DNA of 49,698 nt from Draconibacterium orientale (GTDB taxonomy: Bacteria > Bacteroidota > Bacteroidia > Bacteroidales > FEN-979), in NCBI GenBank assembly GCA_020719165.1, contig DYQT01000002.1, forward strand, positions 1 to 49,698. The letters run 5' to 3'. Within the stretch, counting starts at the first letter, position 1. Each line of letters begins with the position of its first letter. The position numbers were made by a program, and so were the translations under genes. The notes below the pieces were generated by a model. It was not told where the DNA came from. It was given only the letters and a program-made list of their open reading frames with translations, and searched no databases. Below, one piece after another: positions 10,029 through 48,767 of this stretch.

Positions 10029-10030
10029 GG

Positions 10031-10549
10031 TTATCGTATGTAAATACGGGTTGAATTGATTACTGCGGTGTGGGTATAACTGAGAATAATATCTTCGAGT
10101 TCTGCCATGTATGATTGAACAACCGGGTTAAACCAGGGTTTTGGCCTACGGTTGAATCCCAATGATTTTGATAATTTTACAACAATATCCCCGCTCATCA
10201 CATAACCACGCCCAACGCCTTTATGAATGAATATCCCTTCGCGGGCAAAGGAAAAACCAAGCCGGTATATTTCACCGAACTCATAATAATAGGTATTGCG
10301 GATGCTTCTCGCCAGCCGGGATCCTCCAATTCCATGGGCAGCTATGGATCCTGGCATGGCCGCGTTTACCTTCGCGCCCCAAACCATCAGTTTTTGATTA
10401 AACTCTTCGGCGGCTTCCGGTGCCCATTGCGTTCGTTCCCAACGCTGGGTTTTTCCCATCTCTTCAATGCTAACATCAAAAGGACCATTGCTGATCCTGG
10501 TTCGCCTGTGATCTGATGATTGTTCTAAAACCTTCTTCCAGAGACCCAT
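10031..10549 (-). CDS. Conserved neck/tail-completion-like protein (HK97 gp10-like, tentative); paralogue at 48768..49289
   Basis: The ORF track gives 10031..10633. I prefer Met at 10549 (MGLWKK...) because the upstream extension only translates a conserved terminator/promoter DNA block. It sits directly upstream of the tape measure. Confidence 0.7.
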   Translation of the reverse strand: MGLWKKVLEQSSDHRRTRISNGPFDVSIEEMGKTQRWERTQWAPEAAEEFNQKLMVWGAKVNAAMPGSIAAHGIGGSRLARSIRNTYYYEFGEIYRLGFSFAREGIFIHKGVGRGYVMSGDIVVKLSKSLGFNRRPKPWFNPVVQSYMAELEDIILSYTHTAVINSTRIYIR

Positions 10550-14228: not shown

Positions 14229-14762
14229 TTAGAATACTTTGCGACGGTATAAAAGCACAGCCACTGCAGCCAGGATGAATACTGCGATAATACCATAAAC
14301 CCACCAGGGGAAACCGGTTCTTTCAACGGTTTTATCCTTGGTGTTTAGCTCAGTTTTACTTTTGAGCTGCTCAGTTTTAGTATTAACAGCAGTTACCTGG
14401 TCGTTTTTTTTCTGCTGTTGCTTGATGACTTCCTTTTTGATAATAGTTCGTTTTATTTTTATTGGAACGATTATCTGTTTTATACCGGATCCGGAAACTG
14501 TATCGTTTATCATTACCCAAACCGAAACCGTAGTGTCACATTCTTCAGTAGTAACTGTTTCGGCAGTGGCGGTTACATTCGTGTTTGTTTCCGATTGAGT
14601 TGTGGCTTTTGTTTCTTCCGATGAGTTTATATTAATCTCCTCTTTCGCTTTAACCTGGTTGATCTGTTTGGATGTGGTACATGCCTGCAGGCACAAAAAA
14701 AACATGATGGCCGCGAATATGGCCAATAGCCAATCTTTTGGAAAATGATCATACGATTTCAT
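14229..14762 (-). CDS. Unimolecular-spanin-like protein (lipoprotein signal plus C-terminal TM)
   Basis: Lipobox LQAC after a hydrophobic leader, a C-terminal TM helix (WWVYGIIAVFILAAVAVLLY) and a position immediately downstream of the endolysin gene. Confidence 0.5.
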   Translation of the reverse strand: MKSYDHFPKDWLLAIFAAIMFFLCLQACTTSKQINQVKAKEEININSSEETKATTQSETNTNVTATAETVTTEECDTTVSVWVMINDTVSGSGIKQIIVPIKIKRTIIKKEVIKQQQKKNDQVTAVNTKTEQLKSKTELNTKDKTVERTGFPWWVYGIIAVFILAAVAVLLYRRKVF

Positions 14763-17423: not shown

Positions 17424-18478
17424 TACAGTCTCACGAATTTATCAGTAACATCAAAACGTTCGGTAAAGTCAACCGGGTCAATGGTGGTACCTGCAGCAGC
17501 AGCCTCCAGTTTTGCCAGGTGATCCTGTAGTTTGCGAAGCTCGCGCAAACCATCCTTTTCAAGTGATGCAGATATTTCGTTCCGGTCGATCTTGCTGGCC
17601 GCTGATTTTGTTTTAATCACGTTGATAGTCATATTTGAGAATATGCCATCCGGAAGTACTTCAGCGGTTAATCGTTTCGCGGCAACGCTCAGGGTAAGCA
17701 GCGCCAGGGGCTGGCGGGCCTTATCAAGGATGATCAGATTATCCGCTGAAATGTCATCATCTTCAATGGCTGCCTGCAACTCAGCATATTTCTCAGCGGT
17801 GAAACATGATTTTATTTCATTGTCCTGCACCCGGCGCATGATCGGGAGCAGGGAGATAAACGTTAACCGGGATCCTCCGATCATAAACACCTTCTGAAAT
17901 TCATCCACGGTATTGATAAACAGTTCCCGCGTTGCCAATAACGCTGCTGATGTTTTCCATGGAAGTAATGGAGTGTAGCCGACTGGTGGAAATGTATCTT
18001 TTGGTGGAACAATTTCGACTTGATCATCGATATGTTCATCCAGAAATTCGAGGAGGATATCAGTACCATCGTTGGCCAGCCGTAAAAGGTTTTCATTGTC
18101 CTTTTCGATTTGCCACTCGAAGGCGGGTTTTTCCTGTTCCGAAACAAATATCTGGCGGCCTTTGTCAGAATGTGTCAAGTCGGAACTTGGCACATACCGG
18201 CGATAAGCATGAACGGCCACCGGGTATTGGATACACCGAACCAATTCATCCAGAATTGGATATTCGGGATGATCTTCATCTGCTTCAGCCAGCAGATAGT
18301 TCTCGGAATCGTAGTGATCCTGTGCAACCTGAAAAACCTCTTTGCCAATGATCTTCTTGATATCCCGCTCGGCAAAACCAATGTACGATTTCAGATTGTC
18401 GAAATTAATCGACTTGTAAATGAAGCCTATCAAGGCTTTCAGTTCAGATGAACCGGCAGAATCTTTATTAAACAGCAT
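17423..18478 (-). CDS. Hypothetical virion-module protein
   Basis: 351-aa ORF downstream of the portal-like gene. Confidence 0.6.
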   Translation of the reverse strand: MLFNKDSAGSSELKALIGFIYKSINFDNLKSYIGFAERDIKKIIGKEVFQVAQDHYDSENYLLAEADEDHPEYPILDELVRCIQYPVAVHAYRRYVPSSDLTHSDKGRQIFVSEQEKPAFEWQIEKDNENLLRLANDGTDILLEFLDEHIDDQVEIVPPKDTFPPVGYTPLLPWKTSAALLATRELFINTVDEFQKVFMIGGSRLTFISLLPIMRRVQDNEIKSCFTAEKYAELQAAIEDDDISADNLIILDKARQPLALLTLSVAAKRLTAEVLPDGIFSNMTINVIKTKSAASKIDRNEISASLEKDGLRELRKLQDHLAKLEAAAAGTTIDPVDFTERFDVTDKFVRL

Positions 18479-19835
18479 TTTTCAGGCGATCTTTAGGGTT
18501 CGTTTTTTCTTCGGTCATTACGATATCATGATAAAAGCCCAGGCGAAGGTCAGTTCCCGGGAAGTTAGCCCTGATGGCCATGTTGATATCCTTCATCACA
18601 ATACTTTCGGGGATATCGACACCGGTTGCCAGGTAAAGCTTGAAGGCATAGAGCTGCTCCGATCCGGATGGCAGGTTACCATCTTTGCTCAGGTTACTCA
18701 GCGCCGGATGGAGACCTATCCCTGAGGTGATCATGAACATCGACTGGTTGCTGATGGCGATTTGTGCATCAATAAAATCGCCAACCTTCTGATCCATTGG
18801 GGTTATTTTCCAGCCCACGTACTCGTTTGCCTGCTCGTCAAACAATGAATCGGTGGTGATGTACTTTCCCACCTTATCACCGCCGGAAAGGGCTAATGAA
18901 ACCGCTTTGAAAGTGTCATCTTTTAATTTATCAAAAGCTTTTTCGGTAAATGGAACATTCTGAGCAACACAATCCTCTTCCATTTTCATCTTCATCGATG
19001 CCCAATAGAGTGCAGGTACCTCAATGTGGTACTTGATGGCCATGGAATTGTCGTTGAAGTTGGTGAGCAACTTCGGAATCGAAGATCCCAGTTTGATCCA
19101 GCTGATCGTACCATGGAACGGCGAACGTGAATACTCCAAATCGAGCGCAAAAGCGTAGAGATTGGAATAGCGCATGGCCACCGGGGAGGCAAACGGGTTT
19201 TCAGGATCAAATACCGGGTACCTGCGAAGTCCATTCTTCCAGGGTTGCCGGTAATCGCCAACGATGATGTTTCTGATCTGGTTGTTATCATCCGGCCATT
19301 CAAGCCGTGAAAACATGCCCGAAACATGTTCCAGCTTCGCCACGGCGGCTTTCCCGCCAATCCGGGGGCCACGATTGCGGTAAAACTTGGTAAAATGACC
19401 ATTCAATGTGCGGAATTCGATGCAGGCTCTGAGCAAATAGTCTTCATAATCCCATGAATCGAGCCATGCCTGAATAGCAGGATCTTCATCCCAATACTTT
19501 TCCCTGCGGCCATTGTTGAATTTCACCCGGTACAAAGCCGGTCCCTGTCCGTAAAGAAGCTGCGCCTGTTTGTTGAGAACCTCCGGAGTGAGGTTATTCT
19601 CATCAAGAATGGTGCGAATTTCATCCGGATAATTGTTTTCGCTGCCATGAGCAACGATTTGAAAGTCGCCGATACGTGTTGGCAGCAGTTGACGGGCATT
19701 GGAATAGAACGGGAGAACCGAAGTCTGTGCTACGTTCGATGATCCTACCACATCGAAGAGGTAGCACCCGGCTTTGGTAACGGAAATAACCTTGTTTTCC
19801 GCTTTTAATAGTTGAACATCGGTATCTTCAGCCAT
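18468..19835 (-). CDS. Portal-like protein (tentative)
   Basis: 455 aa. The size and position (first large virion gene after the island that follows terL) fit a portal. No diagnostic motif verified. Confidence 0.45.
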   Translation of the reverse strand: MAEDTDVQLLKAENKVISVTKAGCYLFDVVGSSNVAQTSVLPFYSNARQLLPTRIGDFQIVAHGSENNYPDEIRTILDENNLTPEVLNKQAQLLYGQGPALYRVKFNNGRREKYWDEDPAIQAWLDSWDYEDYLLRACIEFRTLNGHFTKFYRNRGPRIGGKAAVAKLEHVSGMFSRLEWPDDNNQIRNIIVGDYRQPWKNGLRRYPVFDPENPFASPVAMRYSNLYAFALDLEYSRSPFHGTISWIKLGSSIPKLLTNFNDNSMAIKYHIEVPALYWASMKMKMEEDCVAQNVPFTEKAFDKLKDDTFKAVSLALSGGDKVGKYITTDSLFDEQANEYVGWKITPMDQKVGDFIDAQIAISNQSMFMITSGIGLHPALSNLSKDGNLPSGSEQLYAFKLYLATGVDIPESIVMKDINMAIRANFPGTDLRLGFYHDIVMTEEKTNPKDRLKNAV

Positions 19836-20133: not shown

Positions 20134-20137
20134 GAGG

Positions 20138-20173
20138 CAAACTTACCGAGCGAGCAGGAAAATTTAAAGGACA
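20138..20173 (-). promoter_or_regulatory. Phage promoter-class element P4 (TGTCCTTTAA-N18-TAAGTTTG)
   Basis: 10-mer at 20164-20173, 18-nt spacer, a perfect TAnnTTTG at 20138-20145, then CCTC and ATG 20133. Confidence 0.65.
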
Positions 20174-20191
20174 CAATAATTGAGTCCTTTG

Positions 20192-20280
20192 GGCGGCAAA
20201 TCCATCAGGAGGCCGCCTTTAGTGACATGATATTTTCATGAGGTTACCTTTGCAGAAAATTTTGAGTAATGCGCGTGGGG
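20192..20280 (+). repeat. Cassette-boundary element c1 (hairpin, plus-strand -7 box TACCTTTG, conserved GAGTAAT..GTGGGG block)
   Basis: Stem GGCGGC/GCCGCC (20192-20197 / 20212-20217) with loop AAATCCATCAGGAG, and a -7 box at 20245-20252. Paralogous to c2-c4. Confidence 0.7.
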
Positions 20281-20415
20281 TTTTTGGTACTTTTTACTTC
20301 AAAAAGTTCCCCGTGAATACTGAGCGAAGTCGAAGTAAAAGCCGGTTTTCTTTTTGCTCAGCTTTTTCTTTGCCGGTGATGTACCAAAGAAAAAGCGTTC
20401 CGGGGATCTGCGAAC

Positions 20416-20445
20416 AAAAAAAACCAGTCCCGTTTCGGGGACTGG
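20416..20445 (-). terminator. Intrinsic terminator after ORF 20519..20731
   Basis: Stem CCAGTCCC/GGGACTGG, followed on the minus strand by T8 (plus-strand A8 at 20416-20423). Confidence 0.7.
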
Positions 20446-20518
20446 AAATATTCAGCCAAATCACATGTTCATTGAAAATGAACACTTGAATTTAATGAAC
20501 AGAAAATGAAAGAAACTG

Positions 20519-20731
20519 TTAATACTGCCTGCTGTAGTTGTCTTCATCTTCGAATGAAGCTAGCGAATGGCGGTAATCAGCCTCACCACATGCCAAATGT
20601 TCAGCATGGTTGCCGTTTGGCCAGTAAATAATTTCTTCGCCTTTTTTAATCGGTTTTTTGCAGGTGTAACATGTGCTGGCGAAGCGTGATGTCATTTGCC
20701 TGGGATCGAGTGATCTTTTCTTGTAGCTCAT
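20519..20731 (-). CDS. Small Cys/His-containing protein (possible zinc binding)
   Basis: 70 aa with C..C (CYTCKK) and H..H.AC (HAEHLAC). Confidence 0.55.
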   Translation of the reverse strand: MSYKKRSLDPRQMTSRFASTCYTCKKPIKKGEEIIYWPNGNHAEHLACGEADYRHSLASFEDEDNYSRQY

Positions 20732-20797
20732 GATGTTTGGTTTTTAATTGTGAATAAAAAAGCCGGGAACGTTTGTTCCCGGCCGGTGAATAATCTG

Positions 20798-21715
20798 TTA
20801 AAATGGTACGGTTTCTTCAATCAGTTCAGGAACCTGAACCTGATCTTCTTCATCCAGGATGATCTGCTGGGTTCCCAGGATATACTCGGCTGCTTTTTCT
20901 GCCCTGGTAGCTGCCCACATGATCCATTTCTGGTTATCTCTGAGCGCCGATGCCCAATCACGCAGGTAAGCATTTGAATTTCGTTGCCTTTTCGTCAATC
21001 CGGCACGGTCGGCCAGAAATGAAGAGGTAAGTTCAGCAACCAGTTCTTCCTTTGAATAAAGTTCGTCTCCAAACTTATTGTGAAAGGCTTCAAACCTGTT
21101 CAGCCGCTTCGGGTGGCCTGTCGAGTGCGCACATTCATGATAAATTATTCTGTAAAAATCTTCTGCCGTGTCATATTGATTCTCCGATGGCATGGTGATC
21201 ACATCAGCAACCGGTGAGTAGCATGGAGATATGTCTGACTGAGAAAAATATATTTCAGGTTTCCCTTTATAGCCTGAAATAATTTGTTCAGCCGGTACAA
21301 ATTGAGCAGATTTCCGGTCGATGGTGGCTTTGTCAAGCTCAGCAATCTTTTGTTTGCCGGTTTCGTCAAAGTGAGCCTGTTCGCTGTTGAAAATGTGATA
21401 GTACTTGAGAATAAATTTGCTGTCAGTTTCACCAGTACTGGCATTTTTTAAATCAGTTTTTTTCCAGAAAACGATGAGCGTTGACTTTTCACCTTTGCGC
21501 ACCTGACCTCCATTGGCCCGTATTTGTCCAAAAGTTCCGTAAACACGGCTTTTGAACCGGTCGCCTGACAAGATCAGATAATTAATTCCCCGGTAAAAAT
21601 GGCCATTCAGGCTAACCGGTGATGGCAAATCCCAAAATTTCTGCCAACTTCCGGCAGTTTCCAGGTTTGCGATGATCTTTTCAGTAATTGCGGCATAAAC
21701 TTCTGCATTATTCAT
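20798..21715 (-). CDS. ardC: ArdC-like antirestriction protein (ssDNA-binding N-domain plus zincin metalloprotease domain)
   Basis: N-terminus ...WQKFWD...NGHFYRGINYLILS...FGQIRANGGQVRKGEKSTLIVFWKK, and C-domain YHECAHSTGHPKRLNR (HExxH). Confidence 0.8.
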   Translation of the reverse strand: MNNAEVYAAITEKIIANLETAGSWQKFWDLPSPVSLNGHFYRGINYLILSGDRFKSRVYGTFGQIRANGGQVRKGEKSTLIVFWKKTDLKNASTGETDSKFILKYYHIFNSEQAHFDETGKQKIAELDKATIDRKSAQFVPAEQIISGYKGKPEIYFSQSDISPCYSPVADVITMPSENQYDTAEDFYRIIYHECAHSTGHPKRLNRFEAFHNKFGDELYSKEELVAELTSSFLADRAGLTKRQRNSNAYLRDWASALRDNQKWIMWAATRAEKAAEYILGTQQIILDEEDQVQVPELIEETVPF

Positions 21716-21859
21716 GTTTTACGCCCCTGCCCTGGGGACTTATTTAGGCATCTGGCTCGCCTGTGAAAAATTTATGCAGACTTAAAAACCGGAATAAAAA
21801 TTCTGGAACAAATGTTCGGGTCACAATTCCCGGCAGGGAATTTGAATGAACCCAGGCGG

Positions 21860-21951
21860 GCGACAGTTCCATCAGGAGGTCGCATTTAGAGACATGATAT
21901 TTTTATGAGGTTAACTTTGCGATAAATTTGAGTAGTAGTGCGGTGGGTAGG
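21860..21951 (+). repeat. Cassette-boundary element c2
   Basis: Stem GCGAC/GTCGC (21860-21864 / 21879-21883) with loop AGTTCCATCAGGAG, a -7 box TAACTTTG at 21912-21919, then GAGTAGTAGTGCGGTGGGTAGG. Confidence 0.7.
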
Positions 21952-21969
21952 CCGAGAAAATAAAAAAAT

Positions 21970-22000
21970 GGAGCCCCGGTTTCGAGGCTCCTTTTCTTTG
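21970..22000. terminator. Bidirectional intrinsic terminator
   Basis: GGAGCC (21970-21975) pairs with GGCTCC (21986-21991). A7 lies upstream and TTTTCTTT downstream on the plus strand. Confidence 0.7.
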
Positions 22001-22011
22001 GTCGTGATTTT

Positions 22012-22350
22012 TTAGAAGGGTATTTCATCCATGGGGATCATGTCAGGGATAATTTTGCCATCTGCAGTATGTTGTAATTTTTTTGGTTTGCGGATTTTTT
22101 TCTGAGGTGCATCCTGAACCTGGCTTGTCTGGGGCTCTGGTGTTTCGACCATTTTGTTTACATAAGCGGTGTAATCGTGACCGAAACTGTCTGTATTCTT
22201 CAATTTCGCTACTTCAAAAGTGAGGTAATCTTCGCCGTTGAATACGTGGGTGAGCTTTGCAATTTCTGACATTTTGAAACTGAATTTCACGATTGCTAAA
22301 TTTGCTACCTGATTGCCTTTTCCGATGTAATTTTTTTCAAAAGTTTTCAT
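22012..22350 (-). CDS. Small protein ending in an SSB-type acidic tip (..MDEIPF)
   Basis: The ORF track gives 22012..22410. I prefer Met at 22350 (MKTFEKNYIGKG). The C-terminal ...IPMDEIPF copies the D-D-D-I-P-F tip of bacterial SSB, preceded by a Pro/Gln/Lys-rich linker. Confidence 0.5.
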   Translation of the reverse strand: MKTFEKNYIGKGNQVANLAIVKFSFKMSEIAKLTHVFNGEDYLTFEVAKLKNTDSFGHDYTAYVNKMVETPEPQTSQVQDAPQKKIRKPKKLQHTADGKIIPDMIPMDEIPF

Positions 22351-22848
22351 GATGGAGTTTTTTAGGGTTAAAATTAATATGCAAGTGAAATTAAGATCAT
22401 GGAGGGGCACTCAAGGAGGAACTGGAATACCGTACTTCGACTTCGCTCAGCACCCTGAGCCATAAGTCGAATAGGATATGCCGGGAAAATCCTTGAATGA
22501 GTGGAACTGTACCCTGGAATGAGATAATAACTTAGCAGAGTAATTAAGACCGGAACTCTGTCATGCAACCTGCAGAAAATAAGCGGAAAAGTACGGTAAG
22601 TAAATTAATCGGGAAATTCAATCAAAATGGTGCAAACATCATCCGGCCAACTGGCGTGGACATCAACTTGACAGCGAAATATACAGTAGTTTGTCATTTA
22701 TACGCATGTAAACAGGTTGAAAACATGTGCCAAAGCAGATTCATTCAATGCATCCGAATAGTCCGCAAACCAAATTACATAGCAAAAATGCAGTAGGGTT
22801 ACAATACGGTTGGCACCCACACGTGTAAAACCCGTAAAGAAAACGAGC

Positions 22849-22876
22849 AAAAAAAAGGTCCCGGTTTCCCGGGACC
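22849..22876 (-). terminator. Intrinsic terminator after the RadC-like gene
   Basis: GGTCCCGG/CCGGGACC stem (22857-22876), followed on the minus strand by T8. Confidence 0.75.
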
Positions 22877-22882
22877 AGTAAT

Positions 22883-23623
22883 TTAAAGGGTGCCTTCATC
22901 AGCGAAGGAATAAAAGTTATCCTGTGCGACAATGATATGATCCAAAATAGAAATTTCAAGAAACGTTGCGGCATCTTTGAGTTTTCTGGTTGTTTTCAGA
23001 TCAGCATCACTTGGAGTTGCAATCCCAGCGGGATGATTGTGCCCGATAATAATGGATGAGCTATGATTTTCCAGGGCGATGAAGAATATCTTTTTAGGAT
23101 CAACCACGGTGCCGGATATTCCACCTTCTGAGACCTTTACCGTCTTAATGATCTTATTTGCCCGGTTCAGGAGCAACATCCAGAATTCTTCATAAGGCAG
23201 GTCGCCCATTAGGGAATGGAAAATCGTATAGGCATCCTGGCTTGTGGAAATCTTAGGTTTGATAACTACCTCGGTAGCATTTCTTCTGCGGGAGAGCGCA
23301 AACATGGAAATAATCTGGCAGGCACGTTGTTTTCCGATGCCTCTGATTTTTTGCAGATCAGCAATTCCAAGTTTCCAGAACTCACAAAGGTTATTTTGAC
23401 AGGATGCCATAATCTTCTGAGCTATGTCAAGTGAATTTTCCTGAGGCGTTCCGGAGCCAATGAGAATACTGAGCAGTTCTGCATCAGAAAGGCTTGCAGT
23501 TCCTTTAAGCATCAGCTTCTCACTTGGAATGTCATCTTCTGCCCAGAATTGCATCGGGATCCTGTTTTTGTAGGTTGAGTCATTTTGCAGGCCGGTTTGA
23601 GAATCCATAACTGATTTTTTCAT
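22883..23623 (-). CDS. radC: RadC-like JAB/MPN-domain protein
   Basis: IIGHNHPAGIATPSDADLKTTRKLKDAATFLEISILDHIIV matches the H.HP.G...PS..D JAB signature of RadC. An N-terminal helix-hairpin-helix-like region is present (LLSILIGSGT...IRGIGKQRA). Confidence 0.8.
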   Translation of the reverse strand: MKKSVMDSQTGLQNDSTYKNRIPMQFWAEDDIPSEKLMLKGTASLSDAELLSILIGSGTPQENSLDIAQKIMASCQNNLCEFWKLGIADLQKIRGIGKQRACQIISMFALSRRRNATEVVIKPKISTSQDAYTIFHSLMGDLPYEEFWMLLLNRANKIIKTVKVSEGGISGTVVDPKKIFFIALENHSSSIIIGHNHPAGIATPSDADLKTTRKLKDAATFLEISILDHIIVAQDNFYSFADEGTL

Positions 23624-23703
23624 CGTTAATTGAGTTTATGCAGCCGCAATGGCCGCGGTTAGTACTGAAATATTGCTTCCAGAACATTACCGGGGAGAAA
23701 TAA

Positions 23704-23842
23704 ATAATGTCAATGGGTGTTGGTCAGATTGATTTTCCAATCTGAATACACTGAAAGCGGCGATTCCATCAGGAGGCCGCCCTTGACAGTTTTATTTTCC
23801 CATAGGTAACTTTGCAATAATTCGAGTAGTAGTGTGCGCTGG
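23704..23842 (+). repeat. Cassette-boundary element c3
   Basis: Hairpin 1 CAGATTG/CAATCTG (23725-23744); hairpin 2 GCGGC/GCCGC (23757-23780) with loop GATTCCATCAGGAG; TTGACA at 23783-23788; -7 box TAACTTTG at 23807-23814; then GAGTAGTAGTGTGCGCTGG. Confidence 0.7.
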
Positions 23843-23873
23843 CCCTTTGATGGCATCCGGGAGATACGACCAT

Positions 23874-23907
23874 AAAAAAAGCAGACAGTCTTTTGGTGAC
23901 TGTCTGC
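23874..23907 (-). terminator. Intrinsic terminator
   Basis: GCAGACAGTC/GACTGTCTGC 10-bp stem (23881-23907), followed on the minus strand by T7. Confidence 0.75.
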
Positions 23908-23914
23908 CTTGTGT

Positions 23915-24199
23915 TTAATTCTTAAAAGAATGATTTTTTTGAAATTGACGAAATTCCCATTCGAAGAGAAGATATTGTTCATCGGTCATTTCTTCCGAAA
24001 AGCCGGGATAATAAATTTGTTCCATGTGCTGAATGAACATTTCTTCGATGGATTGATTGCGGGTTTCTTTTGCAATTGCGGTCATGGCAGTGAGTTTTAG
24101 AGATGAATACTTGAAATTTTCTGATCGCGAAGCGTTAAACCGGATCGATTGGATAATGTCAAGGGTGTTGGTCAGATTGACCTTCCAATCTGAATACAC
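23915..24199 (-). CDS. Hypothetical small protein (start uncertain)
   Basis: 94-aa ORF. Its first ~12 codons translate the c4 repeat, so an internal Met (MTAIAKETRNQ...) may be the true start. Confidence 0.4.
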   Translation of the reverse strand: MYSDWKVNLTNTLDIIQSIRFNASRSENFKYSSLKLTAMTAIAKETRNQSIEEMFIQHMEQIYYPGFSEEMTDEQYLLFEWEFRQFQKNHSFKN

Positions 24200-24317
24200 T
24201 GAAAGCGACCGTTTCTTGTCGCCCTTGACAGTTCCAAGTTTCCAGCGCTCTATCAGCTGGAATACATGTCGATGTAGGTAGCTTTGAAATTATTTCAAGT
24301 ATTGATAGTGGGTAGGG
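24153..24317 (+). repeat. Cassette-boundary element c4
   Basis: Shares ATAATGTCAA.GGGTGTTGGTCAGATTGA..TTCCAATCTGAATACACTGAAAGCG with c3. Hairpin 2 is GCGAC/GTCGC (24205-24222). TTGACA at 24225-24230, an extra hairpin TTCCAGC/GCTGGAA, a -7 box TAGCTTTG at 24279-24286, then AGTATTGATAGTGGGTAGGG. Confidence 0.65.
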
Positions 24318-24699
24318 TTTTGCTTGCTTTTTAAAAAAGCTGCCCGGAAACGGTTTCTTTTTCGCTTCCTTTTTCTTTGACGTTCATTCAAAGAAAAGGA
24401 AGTCAATTTATTCAACTGTTACGGCGTATAAAGCGATATTAAAGTAATACTTTAAGTGAAAAATGAGCTTTATGGCTAATTTTTACTTTTTTAACCTGGT
24501 TTGGTTACCTTTTCCTAAAGGTAAAACACGTTCCCAGCCGACTCGCCCCAATAGGGATGCGAACGTGCCCGCTTCCCGGCAGGCGGATATATGAGCGAAG
24601 CCCATGTGGAAATCCCAGATGTACTGGGGTTTCTGGTTTCAGAAATCCCACCATATGCGGGCAGACTTGAAAAGGATGACCAGTGTATAAAAACAGGGT

Positions 24700-24754
24700 A
24701 GGTTATGTACTAATGTGACCAGGTTGTGTACTTAGGCCAGGGAGGTTGTGTACT
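24700..24754. repeat. Three phased 12-bp direct repeats AGGTT(A/G)TGTACT
   Basis: Copies at 24700-24711, 24721-24732 and 24743-24754, spaced 21-22 bp apart. The last abuts or overlaps the terL stop codon. Confidence 0.8.
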
Positions 24755-26472
24755 TATTTCACACCAATGGATCCGAAGGTAAGCCCTGCCTTTTGTTTTG
24801 TAATTGCGATCCACTTAGGGCGACACATCAGGTATTTGAATGCATCTGTGAAGTTTGTTGATTCCATTGCCAGGCGTGACGATGGTAACTTGTCACCCTT
24901 CTTAACCTTTTGAATTTCATTCTTGGCGCTCTTGGTTACAGGGGTAACCTCCAATTGATTCTTTAACTCACGACATTCAAACATATCGATCAGAAGCTTT
25001 GGCAATCGTTTGTCCTTCTCTCCCATCATTATGTTCATCAGATTGAATTCATCACTATGGGATATGTTACCCTGGCCAATGTTCATCAATTGGACAATCC
25101 AACCAGTACGCACGCCTGCTTTGGTGAATTCGATATCATGTTTGAGTTGTGTGGCAAAGTCACGGCCACTCTTTCGGTATTGGTTGGCCGACCGGTCATG
25201 GTAAAGATGGAACACCTTCTTCTTATGTGGCTCAAAGAACGTGATGAACTTATCAGCCAGCTCACGGATCCACTCGGGGGTTAACGTGTAGATTCCTTTA
25301 AGGATACGATAGTTGTTTCCTTGCTCCTGCCCTATTACCAGGCTCATCATGTTGCCTGCATCGAACCCACCCTCCAGTATCTGATCATGGCCTATGTGTC
25401 TTAACCCTGTTGATGTCTGCACCAGGTTCGACTTCAGGCTGAACTGATCATAGTAATCGTAGTTGTACCCATCACGATAGAAATGCTTATCAGCCAGGGC
25501 GCCATAGAACCGTGAACTAACTTCCAGCGTTTTGCGCATGGACAGTACTGCTGTTTTGAATTCTTCAAAGTCAAGCGTATCCAGCAGATTCTTAAAATAT
25601 TTCAGGGTAAGTATGTCAGCATTGGCAAATGATGATACGATATAAAAGAATGTGCTGTCCTGCCTGATCTTGCCAAGGCGCTCCATCCAGCGCTGGCGAT
25701 TCTTTTTTATGTTCTCAATCTTTTTGGAATCTTCTCCCTTCTTGATGGCAAAAAAGATTTCCAGGTTTATTTCGTTCAGGATGAACGCCGCCTTGATGAT
25801 CCGAGTGATCTGCTGCTTATCCATCTTCTTTTCCATGCGCAACATCCAATCGCTTTCACCAACCGCAGGGTCAGGCATGTCACTGCAGAAGGTTTGACCC
25901 ATAAAGTAATGGCTATGCCCGTAAAGATTGTAATCGCCTCTCAGGGTAGGGAAAAGCTTATTGAGCTTCTCTTCCTGCAGATACTTTGATTCATCCCCGA
26001 AGTGATGAACAACCGATATCCCAGCATTGGCGCTGGGCCGGTCCAGGGAGGTCAGGAAGAATTTACAACCATTGAATGTAGTGATGGTGTGTTTGTATGA
26101 AAAGGTTTTGATCAGCGGTTTCGGCCAGTGATCGGGTGGTTCCTGGTCAACAACGAAATGATAGTTCTCAATAAATCCCTGGCGGCTCTCCCATCCAAGG
26201 ATTATGGCCGGAATGATGTTGGTCATCAGGTTTACATAGGTATCCGATACAAATGCAAATGATGCACGAGGCATGTCATAGATGATATCGATTGATCTCT
26301 TTGCCAGGACATCGGTACTTTTGGCAGTTCCACGGCCACCATACAGATAGAGGTTTGTTGGCTTGATCAGGTCAATCAGTGTCGCTATCCAGTTGGAGTA
26401 ACGAATATCTGCTTCCTCAGAGGTTATCTTATTCTTGGACATTTTCGGCCATTTCAAATATGATATCTTCAA
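24754..26472 (-). CDS. terL: Terminase large subunit
   Basis: 572 aa with Walker A YGGRGTAKS near the N-terminus and an acidic Walker-B-like HHFGDESKY. Size and architecture are typical. Confidence 0.8.
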   Translation of the reverse strand: MKISYLKWPKMSKNKITSEEADIRYSNWIATLIDLIKPTNLYLYGGRGTAKSTDVLAKRSIDIIYDMPRASFAFVSDTYVNLMTNIIPAIILGWESRQGFIENYHFVVDQEPPDHWPKPLIKTFSYKHTITTFNGCKFFLTSLDRPSANAGISVVHHFGDESKYLQEEKLNKLFPTLRGDYNLYGHSHYFMGQTFCSDMPDPAVGESDWMLRMEKKMDKQQITRIIKAAFILNEINLEIFFAIKKGEDSKKIENIKKNRQRWMERLGKIRQDSTFFYIVSSFANADILTLKYFKNLLDTLDFEEFKTAVLSMRKTLEVSSRFYGALADKHFYRDGYNYDYYDQFSLKSNLVQTSTGLRHIGHDQILEGGFDAGNMMSLVIGQEQGNNYRILKGIYTLTPEWIRELADKFITFFEPHKKKVFHLYHDRSANQYRKSGRDFATQLKHDIEFTKAGVRTGWIVQLMNIGQGNISHSDEFNLMNIMMGEKDKRLPKLLIDMFECRELKNQLEVTPVTKSAKNEIQKVKKGDKLPSSRLAMESTNFTDAFKYLMCRPKWIAITKQKAGLTFGSIGVK

Positions 26473-28341: not shown

Positions 28342-28403
28342 AAAGGGAAATTCATCCCGGATTCGGAATGCCGGAACGGAATTGAGCGTTACTTTTTGCG
28401 GCT

Positions 28404-28799
28404 CTATTTTTTTACCGGGGGGTCGGCTTTTTTGTTTTTCTTCCCAGGTGCCGGGGGTGAAACCTTTAAATCATTTTTTTTCGGGCCAGGGGTTGGGAAC
28501 CTTGATAAATATTCATCATCGGCTTTGAGTGGTTGTCCATCGTTTTCAACCTGTGGTTCCGGTTTAATCTCCCTGGAAGGAATAACAACAGCTTTTGAAA
28601 GAATCACATTCAGCTCGGACACTTTCAGCATTGCAAGCTCCCGAAGTTCCTCAATGATGCATCCCTTGAGGTAATCACTTTCGGGATGGATGTTGAGTTG
28701 TTTCTTCAGTCCGAGTTTCGGGCTGTACTTTATGATCAGGGAAACGCCGCTCCGATAGGAGCGATCGGTTTCAAGATATTTTATAATTTCAGTTTTCAT
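28404..28799 (-). CDS. Hypothetical protein with a Lys/Pro-rich C-terminal tail
   Basis: 131-aa ORF, co-oriented. Confidence 0.6.
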   Translation of the reverse strand: MKTEIIKYLETDRSYRSGVSLIIKYSPKLGLKKQLNIHPESDYLKGCIIEELRELAMLKVSELNVILSKAVVIPSREIKPEPQVENDGQPLKADDEYLSRFPTPGPKKNDLKVSPPAPGKKNKKADPPVKK

Positions 28800-29765: not shown

Positions 29766-31922
29766 TTATCCGCGTGCGATTTCGTAGAATTTCTCGTTCG
29801 TTGCTTTTTCAAGCGTGATGTAGGTTCCTGCCAGCAGGGTCATAGCCGCGGTGAGAACGAAGTTCCCGGCATTGGCCATGGTTACTGCATTGGTGTCGCT
29901 TCCGCCATAGATGGTGTAAACCGTGTCGGTTACAGCATTGTCAAAGGTGGTGAAGGCCGTTGGTACGGTATTAACAACCGTGATGAACGAAGTTCCGGCA
30001 GCCACATCAGGCGTGGTATCATCGGCAGTCAAGGCAATTGCGGTGCTGGTAACAGCTTCGCGCTTGAGTTCGATGAATTTACCGTCAGACCTTTTCTTCA
30101 GGTAGATTTTATCACCAACAGCCGGTGTCCAGGCAGCGGTGATCAGTGAGAAGTTGCCGGCGGCGGCAATGGTGACGGCGTTGGTTGCGTTTCCGCATTT
30201 CAGGATTACTTCCTGTCCAACAGCACAATCATCAATACCCGTGATGGCGGTAGCAGCCGAGTTAGCCACGCTGATCAGGCTGGTGTGGTTGAGCACACTT
30301 GGCGTTGTGTCGTTTGCATCCATGGATACAAAGAAATCGGAGGGTTCGTCAACATCGTTGCAGAAGATCATCTGGGTAGAGTAATCGCCAGGCATTGCTG
30401 CAGCAGAAGCGTATTTACGTCCAACCATGTAAGCCCAAACGGATTCTCTCCAGTTTGACCATACTTTCAATCTCCAGTCCTGCTGCTCCATGTTGAAATT
30501 CAACATTTCGCCAGATTTATCCTCGAAGAGGGCGATATTACCTTCAACGGTCCAGATGAGCCGTTTGCTGGGGGCCATGCCCTGAATGGCAACGATTTTC
30601 ACGTTAGGATATTCCTTCACGTATTCAATGCCACCTTTATAGTCCTGATTTAACCCGTAAAGGGTTTCGAGGTTGGTGTTGTAATCACTCAGGGTATCAG
30701 TGCTCATGTACAGAACCAAACGTCCACTGTCGCGGAGAACTTCCGGGATCAGCTTGGTTCCATTCTTCACATGCGATGCGATGGTGGAAGGGGTCCACTC
30801 TCCGAGGTTGAAAGCCTGCATTTTGAAAGCAGCGAGCTGGATCTTGATAAACTTCAGGATACCATTCGAAGCCTGCAGGGAGGTACCGGCCACATTGGCG
30901 GTGGGGTTCTTACGAACGCCACGAACACGGCGCTGTTCCTGCTCATTCTTGAGTTTTTTGCCGGTTTCAACCAGAATATACTCAATGAATGACCATTTCA
31001 TTGGCGATGATCCTTCGCGGTTCAGGTAACCGATCCAGCTTTTTTCAAGCTCTTTCAGTTGTTTGAACTCATGAGCGAACATTACATCGTACATGGTGAG
31101 GGTTTCCGGCTCAAACTTGTAGCCACCTTTAACCACATTTTCGAAGGTACTTCCCAGGGAAGTGCTGTCTGCCTGAGAGAAATCATCGGTAAGGAACATG
31201 TTCACCAACACGGCCTGATCCTGGTACCCACTTTCGAGCGGGAAGATGGCGGTGAGTGATGGCAGGCTCATCAAAAATGACTGAACCCGGTCCTGTTTGC
31301 GGATACGGTAATATTCGCCCAGGTCAGATCCCAATGAGGAATAGTCGAGCGATGAAGCTGCACGGGGCGAAGACATTTCGATTCCGTGGCGGGCGGCGAT
31401 CGATGCATAAGCCCTGCGGTTGTAGCCGTGGGCATCGTCGATGGCAAAGAATGGCTGGTTTTCACCATACAGGTGCGTATCCTGCCCGGATGGCACCCAG
31501 TTTTTGGGATTGTTTTTCATAACAGGATTTGGGTCCGGATCTGCTTCCGGTTTTTTGGTGAGTGTGGCAATGATGCCATCTTTCTCGGTGATGATATCCG
31601 CGAGCTTATCTTTCGCAGCTTTTTCAGCAGTGAGTTCGCGTTGAGCCTGCTGTTTTTCTGCCTCGATTTTCAGGTTTTCTTTTACTAATGCCTCCAACTT
31701 GATATGCAATGCAGCAAACATGTCCTGAACTTCTTTTTCGTCCGTGGCATTACCCTCCGGATCATTGGACAGCGCAGAAACGAACTTCTTAGTGAATTCC
31801 TCACCGAGATTTCCCTTCAGCTTTGTCAATTGTTCCTCGGTAAGCGATACTTTACCATCCGGGTCTTTGGCAAAAGCCTGAAGACCGAGGAATGCCAGGA
31901 CGGTAATCATGAATTGTTTCAT
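29766..31922 (-). CDS. Major capsid-like protein with an N-terminal coiled-coil (scaffold-like) region and two C-terminal ~85-aa repeat domains
   Basis: 718 aa. Translationally coupled (4-nt overlap) to the S49 protease gene, the classic protease-then-capsid order. The fold could not be verified. Confidence 0.6.
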   Translation of the reverse strand: MKQFMITVLAFLGLQAFAKDPDGKVSLTEEQLTKLKGNLGEEFTKKFVSALSNDPEGNATDEKEVQDMFAALHIKLEALVKENLKIEAEKQQAQRELTAEKAAKDKLADIITEKDGIIATLTKKPEADPDPNPVMKNNPKNWVPSGQDTHLYGENQPFFAIDDAHGYNRRAYASIAARHGIEMSSPRAASSLDYSSLGSDLGEYYRIRKQDRVQSFLMSLPSLTAIFPLESGYQDQAVLVNMFLTDDFSQADSTSLGSTFENVVKGGYKFEPETLTMYDVMFAHEFKQLKELEKSWIGYLNREGSSPMKWSFIEYILVETGKKLKNEQEQRRVRGVRKNPTANVAGTSLQASNGILKFIKIQLAAFKMQAFNLGEWTPSTIASHVKNGTKLIPEVLRDSGRLVLYMSTDTLSDYNTNLETLYGLNQDYKGGIEYVKEYPNVKIVAIQGMAPSKRLIWTVEGNIALFEDKSGEMLNFNMEQQDWRLKVWSNWRESVWAYMVGRKYASAAAMPGDYSTQMIFCNDVDEPSDFFVSMDANDTTPSVLNHTSLISVANSAATAITGIDDCAVGQEVILKCGNATNAVTIAAAGNFSLITAAWTPAVGDKIYLKKRSDGKFIELKREAVTSTAIALTADDTTPDVAAGTSFITVVNTVPTAFTTFDNAVTDTVYTIYGGSDTNAVTMANAGNFVLTAAMTLLAGTYITLEKATNEKFYEIARG

Positions 31923-32812
31923 AGGTTGTTTTTAAAATTTATGGATTTCGATTGATTAATAAGTTTATTGGCAAGGCCTAATTCGTAGACTTTGATAAGC
32001 GCATTTTGCATGGTGGTGATCTCGTTGATCAACCCAAATGACTGGGCCTGTGCGGCGAAATAATCAGCACCGGTGAAAACCTCAGATTCAGCCGGTATGT
32101 TCAGATTATTCTGAATAGCCTGGTGAAAAATGCCATTGACAAAATCAACCCGGTCAAGGATCAGTTTTGTTTCGCCTGTTTCTTTGAAAGCCCTCCAAAC
32201 TTCATCCTTCCGGGTGGCCAGGGTGGCGTATATATCGGTGATCTTGATTCCGATCTTTTCCAGCAATACGGCATAATCCTCAATGGATGTTTTGGTACCG
32301 ATGCTGCCGATGATGTCCATTGGCGAAGTGGCAATACGGTAATTGGTTGCCGAGATCACCCACATGGCAGCGGAAGCGGCCATGCCCATCACCACCGAAA
32401 CGGAAGGTTTTGATAATCCTTTAATGGTGTTGGCCAGAACGTCAATCTGGGAAACCATCCCGCCGGGGGAGTTTACTACAAATAAGATTGAGTTGATGCG
32501 TGGATTTTCTTCGGCCTCATGGATCAGTTTCATAAGATAAACACTGTCCCATGAGCAAATCACACCATCAATAGGAATAACAGCCACAGAATTGTCAGCG
32601 ATATCCGGATCATAGAGGTGGCACCATTTTACAGTTTCTATTTTCTTTTCCGGATTAGACCATCCAAAGACATAAGGCTTTGGCCCATCTGTCGGTTTGG
32701 TTAGGATATCCTGTCCTTTAATGAAGGCGATGAGCACCGGTAAATAAGAAATGGCCGTATCCTGACGGATCAGCCATTGGGCACCAAGAATGGAGAATAT
32801 GCGATTTAACAT
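31919..32812 (-). CDS. S49-family (SppA/ClpP-like) prohead protease
   Basis: ILFVVNSPGGMVSQ...VVMGMAASAAMWVISATNYRIATSPMDIIGSIGT matches the S49 serine-peptidase core. Confidence 0.8.
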   Translation of the reverse strand: MLNRIFSILGAQWLIRQDTAISYLPVLIAFIKGQDILTKPTDGPKPYVFGWSNPEKKIETVKWCHLYDPDIADNSVAVIPIDGVICSWDSVYLMKLIHEAEENPRINSILFVVNSPGGMVSQIDVLANTIKGLSKPSVSVVMGMAASAAMWVISATNYRIATSPMDIIGSIGTKTSIEDYAVLLEKIGIKITDIYATLATRKDEVWRAFKETGETKLILDRVDFVNGIFHQAIQNNLNIPAESEVFTGADYFAAQAQSFGLINEITTMQNALIKVYELGLANKLINQSKSINFKNNL

Positions 32813-34618: not shown

Positions 34619-34651
34619 TGTTTTTTTAACTATTAGATAATTTTGACAATT

Positions 34652-43121: not shown

Positions 43122-43145
43122 GATTATTTATTTGAATTTTTAATT

Positions 43146-48765: not shown

Positions 48766-48767
48766 AA

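Follow-up and report, generated by a model that had tools for sequence, protein, structure and literature searches.

The DNA analysed here, a stretch of 49,698 nucleotides (nt) of contig DYQT01000002.1 from Draconibacterium orientale (assembly GCA_020719165.1; hereafter the window), is the genome of a siphovirus-like temperate phage or prophage, whose minus strand carries nearly all genes. An island of five minus-strand genes is located between a TerL-like (large-terminase-like) gene and the portal gene, and a family of repeated elements precedes the island genes, each element carrying on the plus strand a box that resembles the −7 motif of Bacteroidota promoters (TAnnTTTG). A sequence-only reading of the window had described four of these elements (c1 to c4) as hairpins joined to an antisense promoter. 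The analysis of their relatives revealed that each full element is a 170–210-nt imperfect inverted repeat whose arms covary, and we tentatively suggest that it might work as a promoter assembled from single-stranded DNA (ssDNA). The island comprises the following genes, listed with the two genes bordering it:

18468–19835: gene of 455 amino acids (aa) to the left of the island, regarded as the portal gene from its position
20798–21715, minus strand: ArdC-like gene
within the island, minus strand: small zinc-ribbon open reading frame (ORF)
22012–22353, minus strand: SSB-like gene, with a C-terminal DEIPF tip and its ATG at 22353
22883–23623, minus strand: RadC-like gene
start at 24086, minus strand: 56-aa ORF
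24754–26472: 572-aa gene to the right of the island, TerL-like by position

The window holds three complete copies of the element (c2, c3 and c4), a relic (c1) and a divergent fifth copy (c5). The revised order is c4, 56-aa ORF, c3, RadC-like gene, c5, SSB-like gene, c2, ArdC-like gene plus zinc-ribbon ORF, c1 relic and, beyond it, a late promoter, a 96-aa gene and the portal gene. The elements do lie at the boundaries of the cassettes, as previously proposed; c5, in front of the SSB-like gene, had been overlooked, and c1 had not been recognized as a relic. The parts of the elements are as follows:

21716–21951, plus strand: c2, type A, upstream of the ArdC-like gene (126.5 bits, E = 1.5e-21)
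21724–21727 and 21734–21737, plus strand: c2 leader hairpin, CCCC and GGGG
21748–21762, plus strand: c2 conserved segment GGCATCTGGCTCGCC
21768–21777, plus strand: c2 left arm of the outer stem P0, AAATTTATGC
21794–21801, plus strand: c2 left side of the spacer helix, ATAAAAAT
21810–21814, plus strand: c2 left side of the inner stem P1, AAAT(G)
21825–21842, plus strand: c2 hairpin 1
21843–21853, plus strand: c2 linker TGAATGAACCC
21860–21883, plus strand: c2 hairpin 2
21884–21887, plus strand: c2 right side of P1, ATTT
21899–21906, plus strand: c2 right side of the spacer helix, ATTTTTAT
21912–21919, plus strand: c2 box TAACTTTG
21919–21929, plus strand: c2 right arm of P0, followed by the block GAGTAGTAGTGCGGTGGGTAGG at 21930–21951
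23624–23842, plus strand: c3, type B, upstream of the RadC-like gene (E = 1.2e-19)
23659–23676, plus strand: c3 left arm of P0, with the left spacer arm at 23689–23708
23709–23717, plus strand: c3 left side of P1, GTCAATGGG
23724–23745, plus strand: c3 hairpin 1, with hairpin 2 at 23757–23780
23780–23787, plus strand: c3 right side of P1, CCCTTGAC, with the right spacer arm at 23788–23806
23807–23814, plus strand: c3 box TAACTTTG, with the right arm of P0 at 23814–23832
24087–24317, plus strand: c4, in front of the 56-aa ORF, a type-B element bearing a side hairpin (E = 4.1e-13)
24103–24117, plus strand: c4 left arm of P0, ATGAATACTTGAAAT
24158–24165, plus strand: c4 left side of P1, GTCAAGGG, with the right side CCCTTGAC at 24222–24229
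24172–24193, plus strand: c4 hairpin 1, with hairpin 2 (short loop) at 24205–24222
24242–24260, plus strand: c4 side hairpin of the right arm, CCAGC/GCTGG
24279–24286, plus strand: c4 box TAGCTTTG
24292–24306, plus strand: c4 right arm of P0, ATTTCAAGTATTGAT (arms of 15 nt, 93% complementary; inverted repeat I2)
20165–20290, plus strand: c1, truncated relic (E = 1.6e-19)
22354–22570, plus strand: c5, divergent, in front of the SSB-like gene; a long hairpin whose apical hairpin is at 22433–22475
22528–22535, plus strand: c5 box-like sequence TAACTTAG, followed by CAGAGTAATTAAG

Relationship among the Copies

The kinship of the four elements first described is borne out by the repeat families D4, D6 and D10, which link 20191–20262 with 21858–21929, include 23757–23784 and join 23715–23759 to 24163–24207, and by a covariance model (R1) built from 10 copies, which scores c1–c4 at E = 4e-13 to 1.5e-21 and finds no other element at E ≤ 1 in the 49.7-kb window, missing c5. 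The hairpin 1 arms AAGGAC/GTCCTT, ATTCCC/GGGAAT and, twice, CAGATTG/CAATCTG can be read directly in the sequence, and the loop motif TCCATCAGGAGG, attributed to c1–c3, occurs without mismatch three times, at 20201, 21868 and 23765; with up to two mismatches it has 10 matches in the window versus 3.0 expected, a number that none of 100 shuffles reaches. The plus-strand boxes also stand where they had been placed, that is TACCTTTG at 20245, TAACTTTG at 21912 and 23807, and TAGCTTTG at 24279. Over the whole window TAnnTTTG shows no enrichment (33 observed versus 46 expected); the significance of the box comes from its conservation across copies and not from window counts. The ranges originally assigned to the elements pointed to the right sites and were too narrow, with hairpin 1 of c1 (20165–20189) and of c2 (21825–21842) lying outside them; when many copies are aligned, conservation extends on the left to the start codon and on the right 50–150 nt farther than those ranges.

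The relic c1 keeps hairpin 2 (20191–20216), the right arm, the box TACCTTTG (20245–20252) and the block, and has no left arm; what had been taken for its hairpin 1 (20165–20189) is partly made of the −33 region of the adjacent late promoter. In three relatives (L057, L061 and L062), a gene of 122–163 aa is located between the c1-type element and the 96-aa gene. In the window this gene and the left arm are gone, and thus the core of c1 abuts the late promoter. The region of c5 is conserved in six other loci (L083, L077, L048, L103, L015 and L062), and all seven c5-type sequences share TA(A/G)CTTAGCA. The SSB-like gene is preceded by an ORF-free gap of 529 nt (22354–22882), which shows about 75% conservation from end to end in L083 and across the first 200–370 nt or so in the five other loci; its gene-proximal 217 nt correspond to c5, and its distal part of about 300 nt (22570–22882) is conserved in L083 and partly in L077 only.

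On the right flank of the elements there are additional modules, which recur in many relatives:

20277–20280 and 20309–20312, plus strand: c1 hairpin 3, GGGG and CCCC, with the inner stem ACTTTTT/AAAAAGT (repeat family D5)
20361–20372 and 20385–20396, plus strand: c1 pyrimidine/purine hairpin, GCTTTTTCTTTG and CAAAGAAAAAGC (inverted repeat I8; 12 nt, 100% complementary)
24310–24402, plus strand: c4 right-flank modules, with the hairpin GCTTTTT/AAAAAGC (D5, I21)
24371–24380 and 24388–24397, plus strand: core arms of the c4 pyrimidine/purine hairpin, TTCCTTTTTCTTTG and CAAAGAAAAGGAA, preceded by GGTTTCTTTTTCG

The modules of c1 span 20277–20396, and its pyrimidine/purine hairpin is preceded by the mirror repeat TTTCTTTTTGC. 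The same arrangement, a pyrimidine/purine hairpin (for example, CTTCCTTTTTCTTTG and CAAAGAAAAAGGAAG) following a mirror-repeat pyrimidine run (GTTTCTTTTTC), is found at 20347–20396 and at 24354–24402, with a weak third copy of the hairpin at 28389–28422; in most copies of the element it lies 45–110 nt to the right of the box, and it is a terminator on neither strand. Together, the hairpin and the mirror repeat could form an intramolecular triple helix. A further observation concerns a 17-nt exact inverted match, TGAGCGAAGTCGAAGTA and TACTTCGACTTCGCTCA (20322–20338 and 22434–22450, 2.1 kb apart), of which one copy belongs to the c1 right flank and its partner to the c5 apical hairpin; the pair thereby brackets the ArdC and SSB-like cassettes; the expectation of such a match by chance is estimated at about 0.15 for the whole window.

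Folded Structure and Covariation

Each full element extends from about 15–55 nt before the start codon of its gene to about 20 nt past the box. The outer stem P0 joins the sequence following the box (GCATAAATTT in c2, GCAATAATTCGAGTAGTAG in c3, ATTTCAAGTATTGAT in c4) to a complementary segment 15–55 nt upstream of the start codon, and it is usually there that the 18 nt following the box find their best partner. Moving inward from P0, one meets a spacer helix (ATGAAAAT/ATTTTCAT in type A), the stem P1 (AAATG/CATTT in type A and GTCAAGGG/CCCTTGAC in type B) and, at the tip, two covarying hairpins, the second of which has stems of 5–12 bp and loops of 3–20 nt. The complementarity of the two arms amounts to 0.8–1.0 on either side of the box and falls inside it, to a mean of 0.46 at box positions 2–7. 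Reading the left arm on the gene strand, the flanks of the box are kept (..CGGT.. and ..GCATAAATTT..) and a longer, non-conserved stretch replaces the box itself. When the elements are folded as ssDNA with DNA parameters, the long-hairpin layout is returned, with z-scores of −5.3 (c3), −6.6 (c4), −2.7 (c2) and −2.7 (c5); none of 200 shuffles is as stable as the folds of c3, c4 and c5, and the fold of c2 covers 21763–21934. In the centroid structure of c3 the box is partly open, with TA and TG paired and the intervening ACTT unpaired.

The pairing of the arms is selected, not accidental. Duplexes between arms of the same copy average −17.5 kcal/mol versus −12.0 kcal/mol for arms taken from divergent copies (permutation p ≤ 2e-4). 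In an alignment (A4) of nine type-B copies, a structure of 41 pairs leaves 88.9% of the cells paired versus 34–48% when the partners are slid by 1–3 columns, a measure favoured by the derivation of the structure from c3; in the same nine copies, the compensatory pairs number 8 versus 3.6 in shuffles (0 of 500 shuffles) and the covariation score is 0.162 versus 0.085. The stem covariation first suspected from four copies is therefore strong once more copies are added. It is seen in individual helices: P1 occurs as AAATG/CATTT, AAAGG/CCTTT, AAACG/CGTTT, AAGTG/CACTT and AAGAG/CTCTT; the two sides of the spacer helix switch jointly between ATGAAAAT/ATTTTCAT and ATAAAAAT/ATTTTTAT, and those of P0 between TTTATGC/GCATAAA and TTTCTGC/GCAGAAA; the stem of hairpin 2 is GGCGGC/GCCGCC, GCGAC/GTCGC, GGTGAC/GTCAC, GCGAT/ATCGC, GGCGCC/GGCGCC or GGCTCACC/GGTGAGCC; and hairpin 1 varies as much as hairpin 2, many unrelated stem sequences being found at equal positions. 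Hairpin 2 is absent in two copies (L098_936 and L083_11735), and in the left arm of type A a hairpin (CCGGAAT-GAAA-ATTCTGG) competes with the spacer helix ATGAAAAT/ATTTTCAT.

The left-arm spacing is fixed at 16–17 nt in 18 type-B copies, whereas in the right arm the insertion of side hairpins makes the linear distance between TTGAC (−35-like) and the box vary from 18 to 51 nt. It is thus in the folded state, and not in the linear one, that the geometry is conserved. The mismatches between the arms (63 G-T, 56 A-C and 264 transversions; 17 versus 13 in a separate count) disclose no wobble bias on either strand, which weakly favours DNA pairing over a selected RNA helix. Two ways of assigning the folded strand were tried and abandoned. 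Wobble pairs at helix ends (37 versus 16) do not differ significantly, given base composition and the non-independence of the copies. Folding energy, which is better for the plus strand in 40 of 44 copies with DNA parameters and in 43 of 44 with RNA parameters, was rejected because shuffles are similarly biased (−2.15 versus −2.81 kcal/mol, p = 0.13), the plus strand being 54% G+T.

Distribution and Modularity in Relatives

Relatives were collected as the DNA surrounding homologues of the 572-aa, 455-aa and ArdC genes in viral contigs, metagenomes and GTDB genomes. The 572-aa gene has relatives at 15 genome loci, every one (15/15) in Bacteroidota/Bacteroidales metagenome-assembled genomes, including chromosomes of 3.5–5.2 Mb; this establishes the phylum of the host and makes the TAnnTTTG −7 motif the right yardstick for the box. 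The covariance-model search that the sequence-only reading had proposed yielded 84 matches at E < 1e-3, from which 45 distinct copies were analysed. Every one of the 84 lies upstream of a gene start on the strand opposite to the neighbouring genes, and none has the opposite orientation. The distance between the end of the model and the gene start is 23–109 nt in the contigs checked by eye and similar for most of the 45 copies according to an automatic start call. The box is found on the plus-strand right arm in 45/45 copies, with the genes to its left on the minus strand; it reads TA-N-C-T-T-Y-G in 42 of them and matches TAnnTTTG exactly in 33.

The genes behind the elements encode RadC (14), proteins of 122–163 aa of unknown function (10), the 56-aa protein (7), ArdC (5) and ArdC-N-like proteins (4). 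The number of elements per relative ranges from one to four, with a different gene family following each, and in some relatives restriction-modification or GmrSD genes are located between elements. The unit composed of element, gene and terminator is gained or lost as a module, and the units of gain and loss, for which a comparison of relatives had been recommended, coincide with the elements; the idea of mobile regulatory boundary cassettes, similar to the promoter-early-stem-loop (PeSL) elements of T4-type phages, is thus supported by the relatives. The left flank (leader) differs in type according to the gene family, and L075_12633 is a chimera of a type-A left flank and leader with a type-B core. 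The repeated cassettes might also serve as homology patches for the swapping of accessory genes, which the data support as a secondary property whatever the primary function.

The elements match no Rfam family at either threshold and no DNA in the phage and plasmid collections searched; in particular, a blastn search with c2 against the 72,556 plasmid records of PLSDB gave no match at E ≤ 0.01. This collection includes IncF and IncI plasmids. Direct reading of the sequences following the box disclosed no conserved small plus-strand ORFs. Two other searches were set aside: an exact scan of IMG/VR with TCCATCAGGAGGYCGC returned 55 loci, close to the chance expectation, the true relatives among them being four contigs only, and ArdC homologues sought in Bacteroidota conjugative elements led to two contexts (P0026 and P0114), both belonging to the same phage group.

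The slot between the TerL-like and portal genes carries other defence or anti-defence cargo in some relatives (L116, L117 and L118). In L117 (3056–6667) it encodes a helix-turn-helix (HTH) protein, two cytosine methylases and an NgoFVII-type restriction enzyme, and in L118 (2991–7517) an EcoRI-type methylase, GmrSD and a HARE-HTH protein. In Flavobacterium phage laban6-1 (L116, 7795–9662) a methyltransferase, an ArdC-N protein and a SymE toxin are encoded on the opposite strand, and no element of the hairpin-box family was found in this slot.

Promoters and Terminators around the Island

An exact TAnnTTTG on the gene strand is found in 2 of 44 upstream regions (about 370 nt each), and one of the two is the late promoter beside c1:

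20134–20170, minus strand: late promoter of the operon of the 96-aa and portal genes, TTTA-N19-TAAGTTTG-N4-ATG, with the box at 20138–20145 and the ATG at 20133

The same layout, TTTA-N19-TA(A/T)GTTTG, recurs in L057 and L061 (TATGTTTG) and in L062 (TAAGTTTG), at about 1850–1900, 14570–14620 and 19230–19300, respectively. Since the box ends 4 nt before the ATG, the late mRNA should be leaderless or nearly so. The presence of this motif on the gene strand of the late operon implies that the host sigma motif is relevant to the phage, and with the late promoter as an internal positive control, the island genes stand out as lacking a canonical promoter of their own. Directly before each element lies the terminator of the preceding gene:

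21968–21998: two-way intrinsic terminator (A-run, GGAGCC..GGCTCC, T-run; inverted repeat I10), which ends the SSB-like unit about 20 nt from the block of c2
20418–20445, about 20755–20790, about 22852–22880, and 23878–23910: equivalent terminators

The terminator at 21968–21998 is too close to the element for a gene-strand promoter to fit upstream of it. The boxes had been described as antisense and as facing hairpin terminators. The former is true of all copies, while a clear plus-strand hairpin with a T-run is faced by c2 and c3 only; in 17 of the 45 copies, a crude scan picked up a site resembling a plus-strand terminator no farther than 230 nt from the box.

Possible Function of the Elements

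A wrong-strand promoter inside an inverted repeat is how a hairpin or ssDNA promoter looks in duplex DNA, a point overlooked when the elements were first described. In the 3′ arm of a hairpin formed by the template strand, the sequence acts as non-template strand, and a promoter placed there therefore points away from the gene in the duplex and into the gene when folded. On this basis, and judging from sequence comparison, we suggest that the elements may be hairpin/ssDNA promoters, resembling the Frpo promoters of conjugative plasmids, for ArdC, RadC and SSB-type cassettes, with a confidence that stops somewhat short of an even chance. According to this model, the plus strand, which is the template strand of the island genes, would fold over about 170–210 nt into a long imperfect hairpin whenever it is single-stranded or extruded. 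The outer stem P0 would pair the sequence 3′ of the box with the segment 15–55 nt upstream of the start codon; the spacer helix and P1 would lie within it, the type-B P1 (CCCTTGAC/GTCAAGGG) providing a −33/−35-like duplex, and the apical hairpins would cap the structure. The −7 box (TAnCTTYG) would face, from the non-template 3′ arm, a longer stretch lacking conservation, and would hence be partly pre-melted. The host RNA polymerase with its primary sigma factor might then bind this mimic of an open complex, start within P0 and read through the left arm into the gene, producing an mRNA with a leader of 15–55 nt, which in type A would include, immediately ahead of the AUG, a hairpin that covaries (CCCC-AGGGCA-GGGG). 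In duplex DNA the box would point away from the gene, leaving the cassette silent for its gene. Folding in vivo, the use of the fold by the polymerase, the source of the ssDNA (a replication intermediate, end resection or extrusion) and the timing of expression are what we infer from these features.

We rank the hairpin promoter first because it is the only reading that covers together the box and its strand, its constant placement with respect to the start codon, the covariation of the arms, the one-sided conservation, the missing gene-strand promoters, the terminators and the lack of wobble bias. Several observations limit our confidence in this model and weigh against it. We know of no stage in the life of a tailed double-stranded DNA (dsDNA) phage or prophage that exposes the plus strand as ssDNA at a useful time, and the GC skew of the window is flat and gives no direction of replication. 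The pairing statistics do not separate the folding of the plus strand from that of the minus strand. Compared with the host consensus, 12 of the 45 boxes are imperfect (TTCG or TTTA) and the c5-type boxes are TAnCTTAG in 7/7 cases, while the C at position 4, free in the host motif, is invariant; a factor other than the host sigma may thus read the box. Type A has no −33 element at a fixed distance. The arms are about 78% complementary overall, with many transversion mismatches and side branches, which the polymerase might not tolerate. Lastly, c1 demonstrates that a copy without the left arm can persist, and the right-flank modules have no role in the model.

Two other explanations place the function of the elements in RNA. 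The boxes might be ordinary antisense promoters firing from the duplex into short plus-strand RNAs (about 40–190 nt) that act as small RNAs, antisense RNAs or insulators, with the left arm as a decayed inverted duplicate. The box is indeed the best-conserved piece and matches the host −7 consensus, c3 has a cTTG at the canonical distance of 21 nt upstream of it, two-way terminators follow c2 and c3 at 50–90 nt, a hairpin with a T-run stands right after the block in some relatives (for example, GCGGTGGCCACCGTGTTTTTCTTT in L061 and GTTGGCTTTTTGCAACTTTTTT in L048), and both arms of c1 carry a good box; a duplex box of such quality probably fires anyway, and short plus-strand RNAs may be made from the duplex form. 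Nevertheless, this would explain neither why the sequence after the box covaries with a segment outside the transcript, nor its fixed distance of 15–55 nt from the start codon, nor the covarying apical hairpins upstream of the promoter, nor the lack of promoters for the island genes (2/44). Moreover, the spacing between the −35-like sequence and the box varies from 18 to 51 nt, only 17 of the 45 copies have a terminator candidate in the crude scan, the RNA would be identical and not complementary to the beginning of the mRNA leader, and neither a conserved ORF nor an Rfam family was found in it. We therefore regard antisense promoters as an unlikely primary function, and the family of small antisense RNAs envisaged by the sequence-only reading is not supported, although such RNAs may exist; it leaves the covariation of the arms and the missing gene promoters unexplained. 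Alternatively, the elements might act in a minus-sense RNA leader produced by read-through, either as an RNase III-type processing or stabilizing site (similar to the intergenic R sites of T7 early mRNA) or as an antitermination signal of the put, nut or conAn kind, by which the polymerase would get past the island's many terminators. The complementary RNA would form the same helices, both strands giving z-scores of about −3; two adjacent covarying hairpins resemble the put RNA of HK022; and the type-A hairpin beside the AUG covaries, with a CUUC/GGAG wobble in L048_4355 allowed in the mRNA sense only. A terminator after every gene also recalls the establishment operon of pLS20, which is controlled by processive antitermination (PMC6294495). 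Against it, the arm mismatches have no G-U bias on either strand, which would be unusual for a selected RNA helix; a conserved bubble, one-sided and matching the host −7 box, would be a coincidence; the strong terminators 20–150 nt before the elements leave no room for a promoter, and the RNA could arise by read-through only; and Rfam has no match. An RNA leader appears quite unlikely to us.

The remaining explanations invoke recombination. The elements could be sites at which cassettes are recombined or nicked via ssDNA, similar to integron attC sites or to the subterminal hairpins of IS200/IS605, the box being a cleavage or recognition motif. One element per cassette, a single orientation, a structure more conserved than the sequence, a one-sided conserved motif within a bubble, the variable cassette content and the chimeric copies would all be expected of such sites, and the invariant positions of the box (T1, A2, C4, T5, T6 and G8) differ from those fixed in the host motif. 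But the ORFs scanned contained no integron integrase, HUH nuclease or other recombinase, the elements are far longer than attC sites (57–141 nt) and are placed 5′ of genes, beside conserved gene-specific leaders and after terminators, and homologous recombination between repeated cassettes suffices for the mosaicism; this explanation is very improbable. The geometry of inverted repeats around a host-type promoter facing away is the same as that of an inverton locked in the OFF state, in which inversion of the stretch enclosed by the P0 arms, carried out by a recombinase, would bring the box next to the left arm and turn it towards the gene. Bacteroidales are rich in invertons, and repeated flipping would keep the repeats matched. 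However, the ON orientation occurs in 0 of 84 matches, comprising 45 distinct copies from many assemblies; the repeats differ between copies of one genome and are often bulged, which would be hard for a single site-specific recombinase; inversion requires neither a complementary interior nor covarying apical hairpins, both of which are present; and no recombinase domain was detected in the subset of ORFs scanned. An inverton is the explanation to which we give the least credit, hardly any.

If the elements are hairpin promoters, a broader scenario may be outlined from the sequence data, which we consider doubtful in its entirety: a temperate tailed phage of Bacteroidales would have wired its anti-defence genes, comprising ArdC, RadC, SSB-like and small unknown genes, to promoters existing only when the template strand is single-stranded. 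Expression would be triggered by the state of the phage DNA, that is by the resection of ends (of entering or cleaved DNA) or by the passage of a fork, and would switch itself off once the DNA is duplex. If this were true, the elements would be the first family of ssDNA-state promoters outside conjugative plasmids and the first based on the Bacteroidota −7 motif. DNA-structure-gated transcription would not be peculiar to conjugation and could be a general means of firing counter-defence upon DNA exposure; the infection cycle of common Bacteroidales prophages would include an unrecognized single-stranded stage or a sensor of nuclease attack. An antisense TAnnTTTG in an inverted repeat upstream of a promoterless gene would become a search rule for anti-defence cassettes, and the 122–163-aa and 56-aa families would be candidate anti-defence factors. 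Whatever the mechanism, this is a structured family of at least 45 distinct copies, absent from Rfam, that marks the module boundaries of a hypervariable island between TerL-like and portal genes.

Other Features of the Phage Genome

The assignment of the genes bordering the island is based on position. The domain search with the 572-aa product gave no match; the product shares 45% identity, across 98% of its length, with an unannotated ORF of the nearest cultured relative, Cellulophaga phage Ingeline_1, which adjoins the portal gene across the ends of a circularly closed record, and this position suggests a large-terminase-like function. The fact that the Ingeline_1 record breaks exactly between the TerL-like and portal genes was considered as a sign of a genome terminus beside the island and dropped, because the assembly was closed as a circle. 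Many metagenome contigs break at the first element, and those ending near it stop at differing offsets, as expected of assembly breaks induced by repeats at the border of a variable region. Other genes encode an HNH nuclease, two P22-antirepressor-like proteins and a LuxR-type regulator, in addition to the following:

6384–10028: tape measure protein
31919–32812: head protease
38671–42630: DnaG-type primase fusion

The window ORFs scanned showed neither a relaxase nor a type IV secretion domain.

Further repeats of the window belong to other regions. Three direct repeats (AGGTTATGTACTAA, AGGTTGTGTACTTA and AGGTTGTGTACTTA, 21–22 nt apart) at 24700–24756 overlap the stop codon of the 572-aa gene and could be a protein-binding array with a role in packaging or regulation. 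A 111-nt unit present in three copies, 68–74% identical, at 43140–43523 fills the gap between two genes with P22 antirepressor N-terminal domains (42582–43121 and 43535–44110), with a plus-strand TATTTTTG at 43294 between them, and may represent an array of iterons or operators. Of a direct repeat of 87 nt (84% identical), one copy lies just outside (36268–36354) and one inside (36463–36549) a 182-aa ORF (36392–36940). A region of about 850 nt (34365–35217) without any ORF of at least 90 aa, located between two minus-strand genes, contains a plus-strand TAATTTTG at 34638. Finally, a 300-nt direct repeat (72% identical) joins the start region of the tape-measure gene (9925–10224) to a 209-aa ORF at the right end of the window (48662–48961), and may consist of paralogous coding segments.

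Comparison with Known Systems

The Bacteroidales invertons are similar to the phage elements in having inverted repeats around a TAnnTTTG promoter that faces away in one of two states; they differ in that the phage elements have one orientation (84 matches), imperfect and differing repeats, a self-complementary interior and no recombinase found in the ORFs scanned. As in the T4-type PeSL elements, repeated units of promoter and hairpin flank accessory ORFs of a plastic region, plausibly mediating the exchange of modules, and coincide with module boundaries. In the PeSL elements, which Arbiol et al. are said to have described in 2010, the promoter reportedly faces its following ORF and the stem-loop is small and separate, whereas the phage box lies on the opposite strand in all copies, within an inverted repeat of 170–210 nt.

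Two phages offer precedents for promoters made of folded DNA. The earliest genes of phage N4 use template-strand DNA hairpin promoters, stabilized by SSB and read by a giant virion RNA polymerase, with stems of 5–7 bp and loops of 3 nt. The elements differ from N4 in the stems (5–12 bp) and loops (3–20 nt) of hairpin 2 and in a box that fits the host sigma motif; the large window ORFs scanned disclosed no RNA polymerase domain. The minus-strand origin of M13/f1 consists of two adjacent ssDNA hairpins that mimic a promoter for the host RNA polymerase holoenzyme, and the phage elements share the two adjacent hairpins. That origin, however, primes DNA synthesis and is present once per genome in an ssDNA phage, while here four or five copies tied to genes are found in a dsDNA phage.

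The closest parallel is represented by the Frpo/ssi elements of conjugative plasmids (F, ColIb-P9 and pESBL), in which the template strand folds into long imperfect stem-loops, a few hundred nt in size, that restore the promoter boxes and are located, in one orientation, upstream of ssb, ardA/ardC-type, psiB and methylase genes (PMC11541004, PMC12672017, bioRxiv 10.64898/2026.01.09.698686). The F plasmid's leading region has four operons, each with its own ssDNA promoter, and that of pESBL six (PMC11541004; bioRxiv 10.64898/2026.01.09.698686; PMC12672017). Some differences from the plasmid elements are evident: the phage elements sit in a tailed temperate phage with no known ssDNA entry stage, they carry the Bacteroidota −7 motif in place of the sigma-70 −35/−10 boxes, their box is placed in a partly open bubble, they possess two covarying tip hairpins and side branches, and they gave no match in Rfam or, with c2, in the blastn search of the plasmid collection. 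With respect to the −35/−10 duplex at the proper spacing that characterizes Frpo, type B pairs the −35-like CCCTTGAC with GTCAAGGG and has a fixed left-arm spacing of 16–17 nt, the box itself is only about half paired, and type A has no clear −33 element. On the other hand, both the plasmid and the phage elements are long imperfect stem-loops, one per operon and repeated along an island; the classes of cargo are shared, the phage having ArdC, ArdC-N-like, RadC and SSB-like genes; and in both, as derived from strand polarity, the boxes of the duplex face away from the genes.

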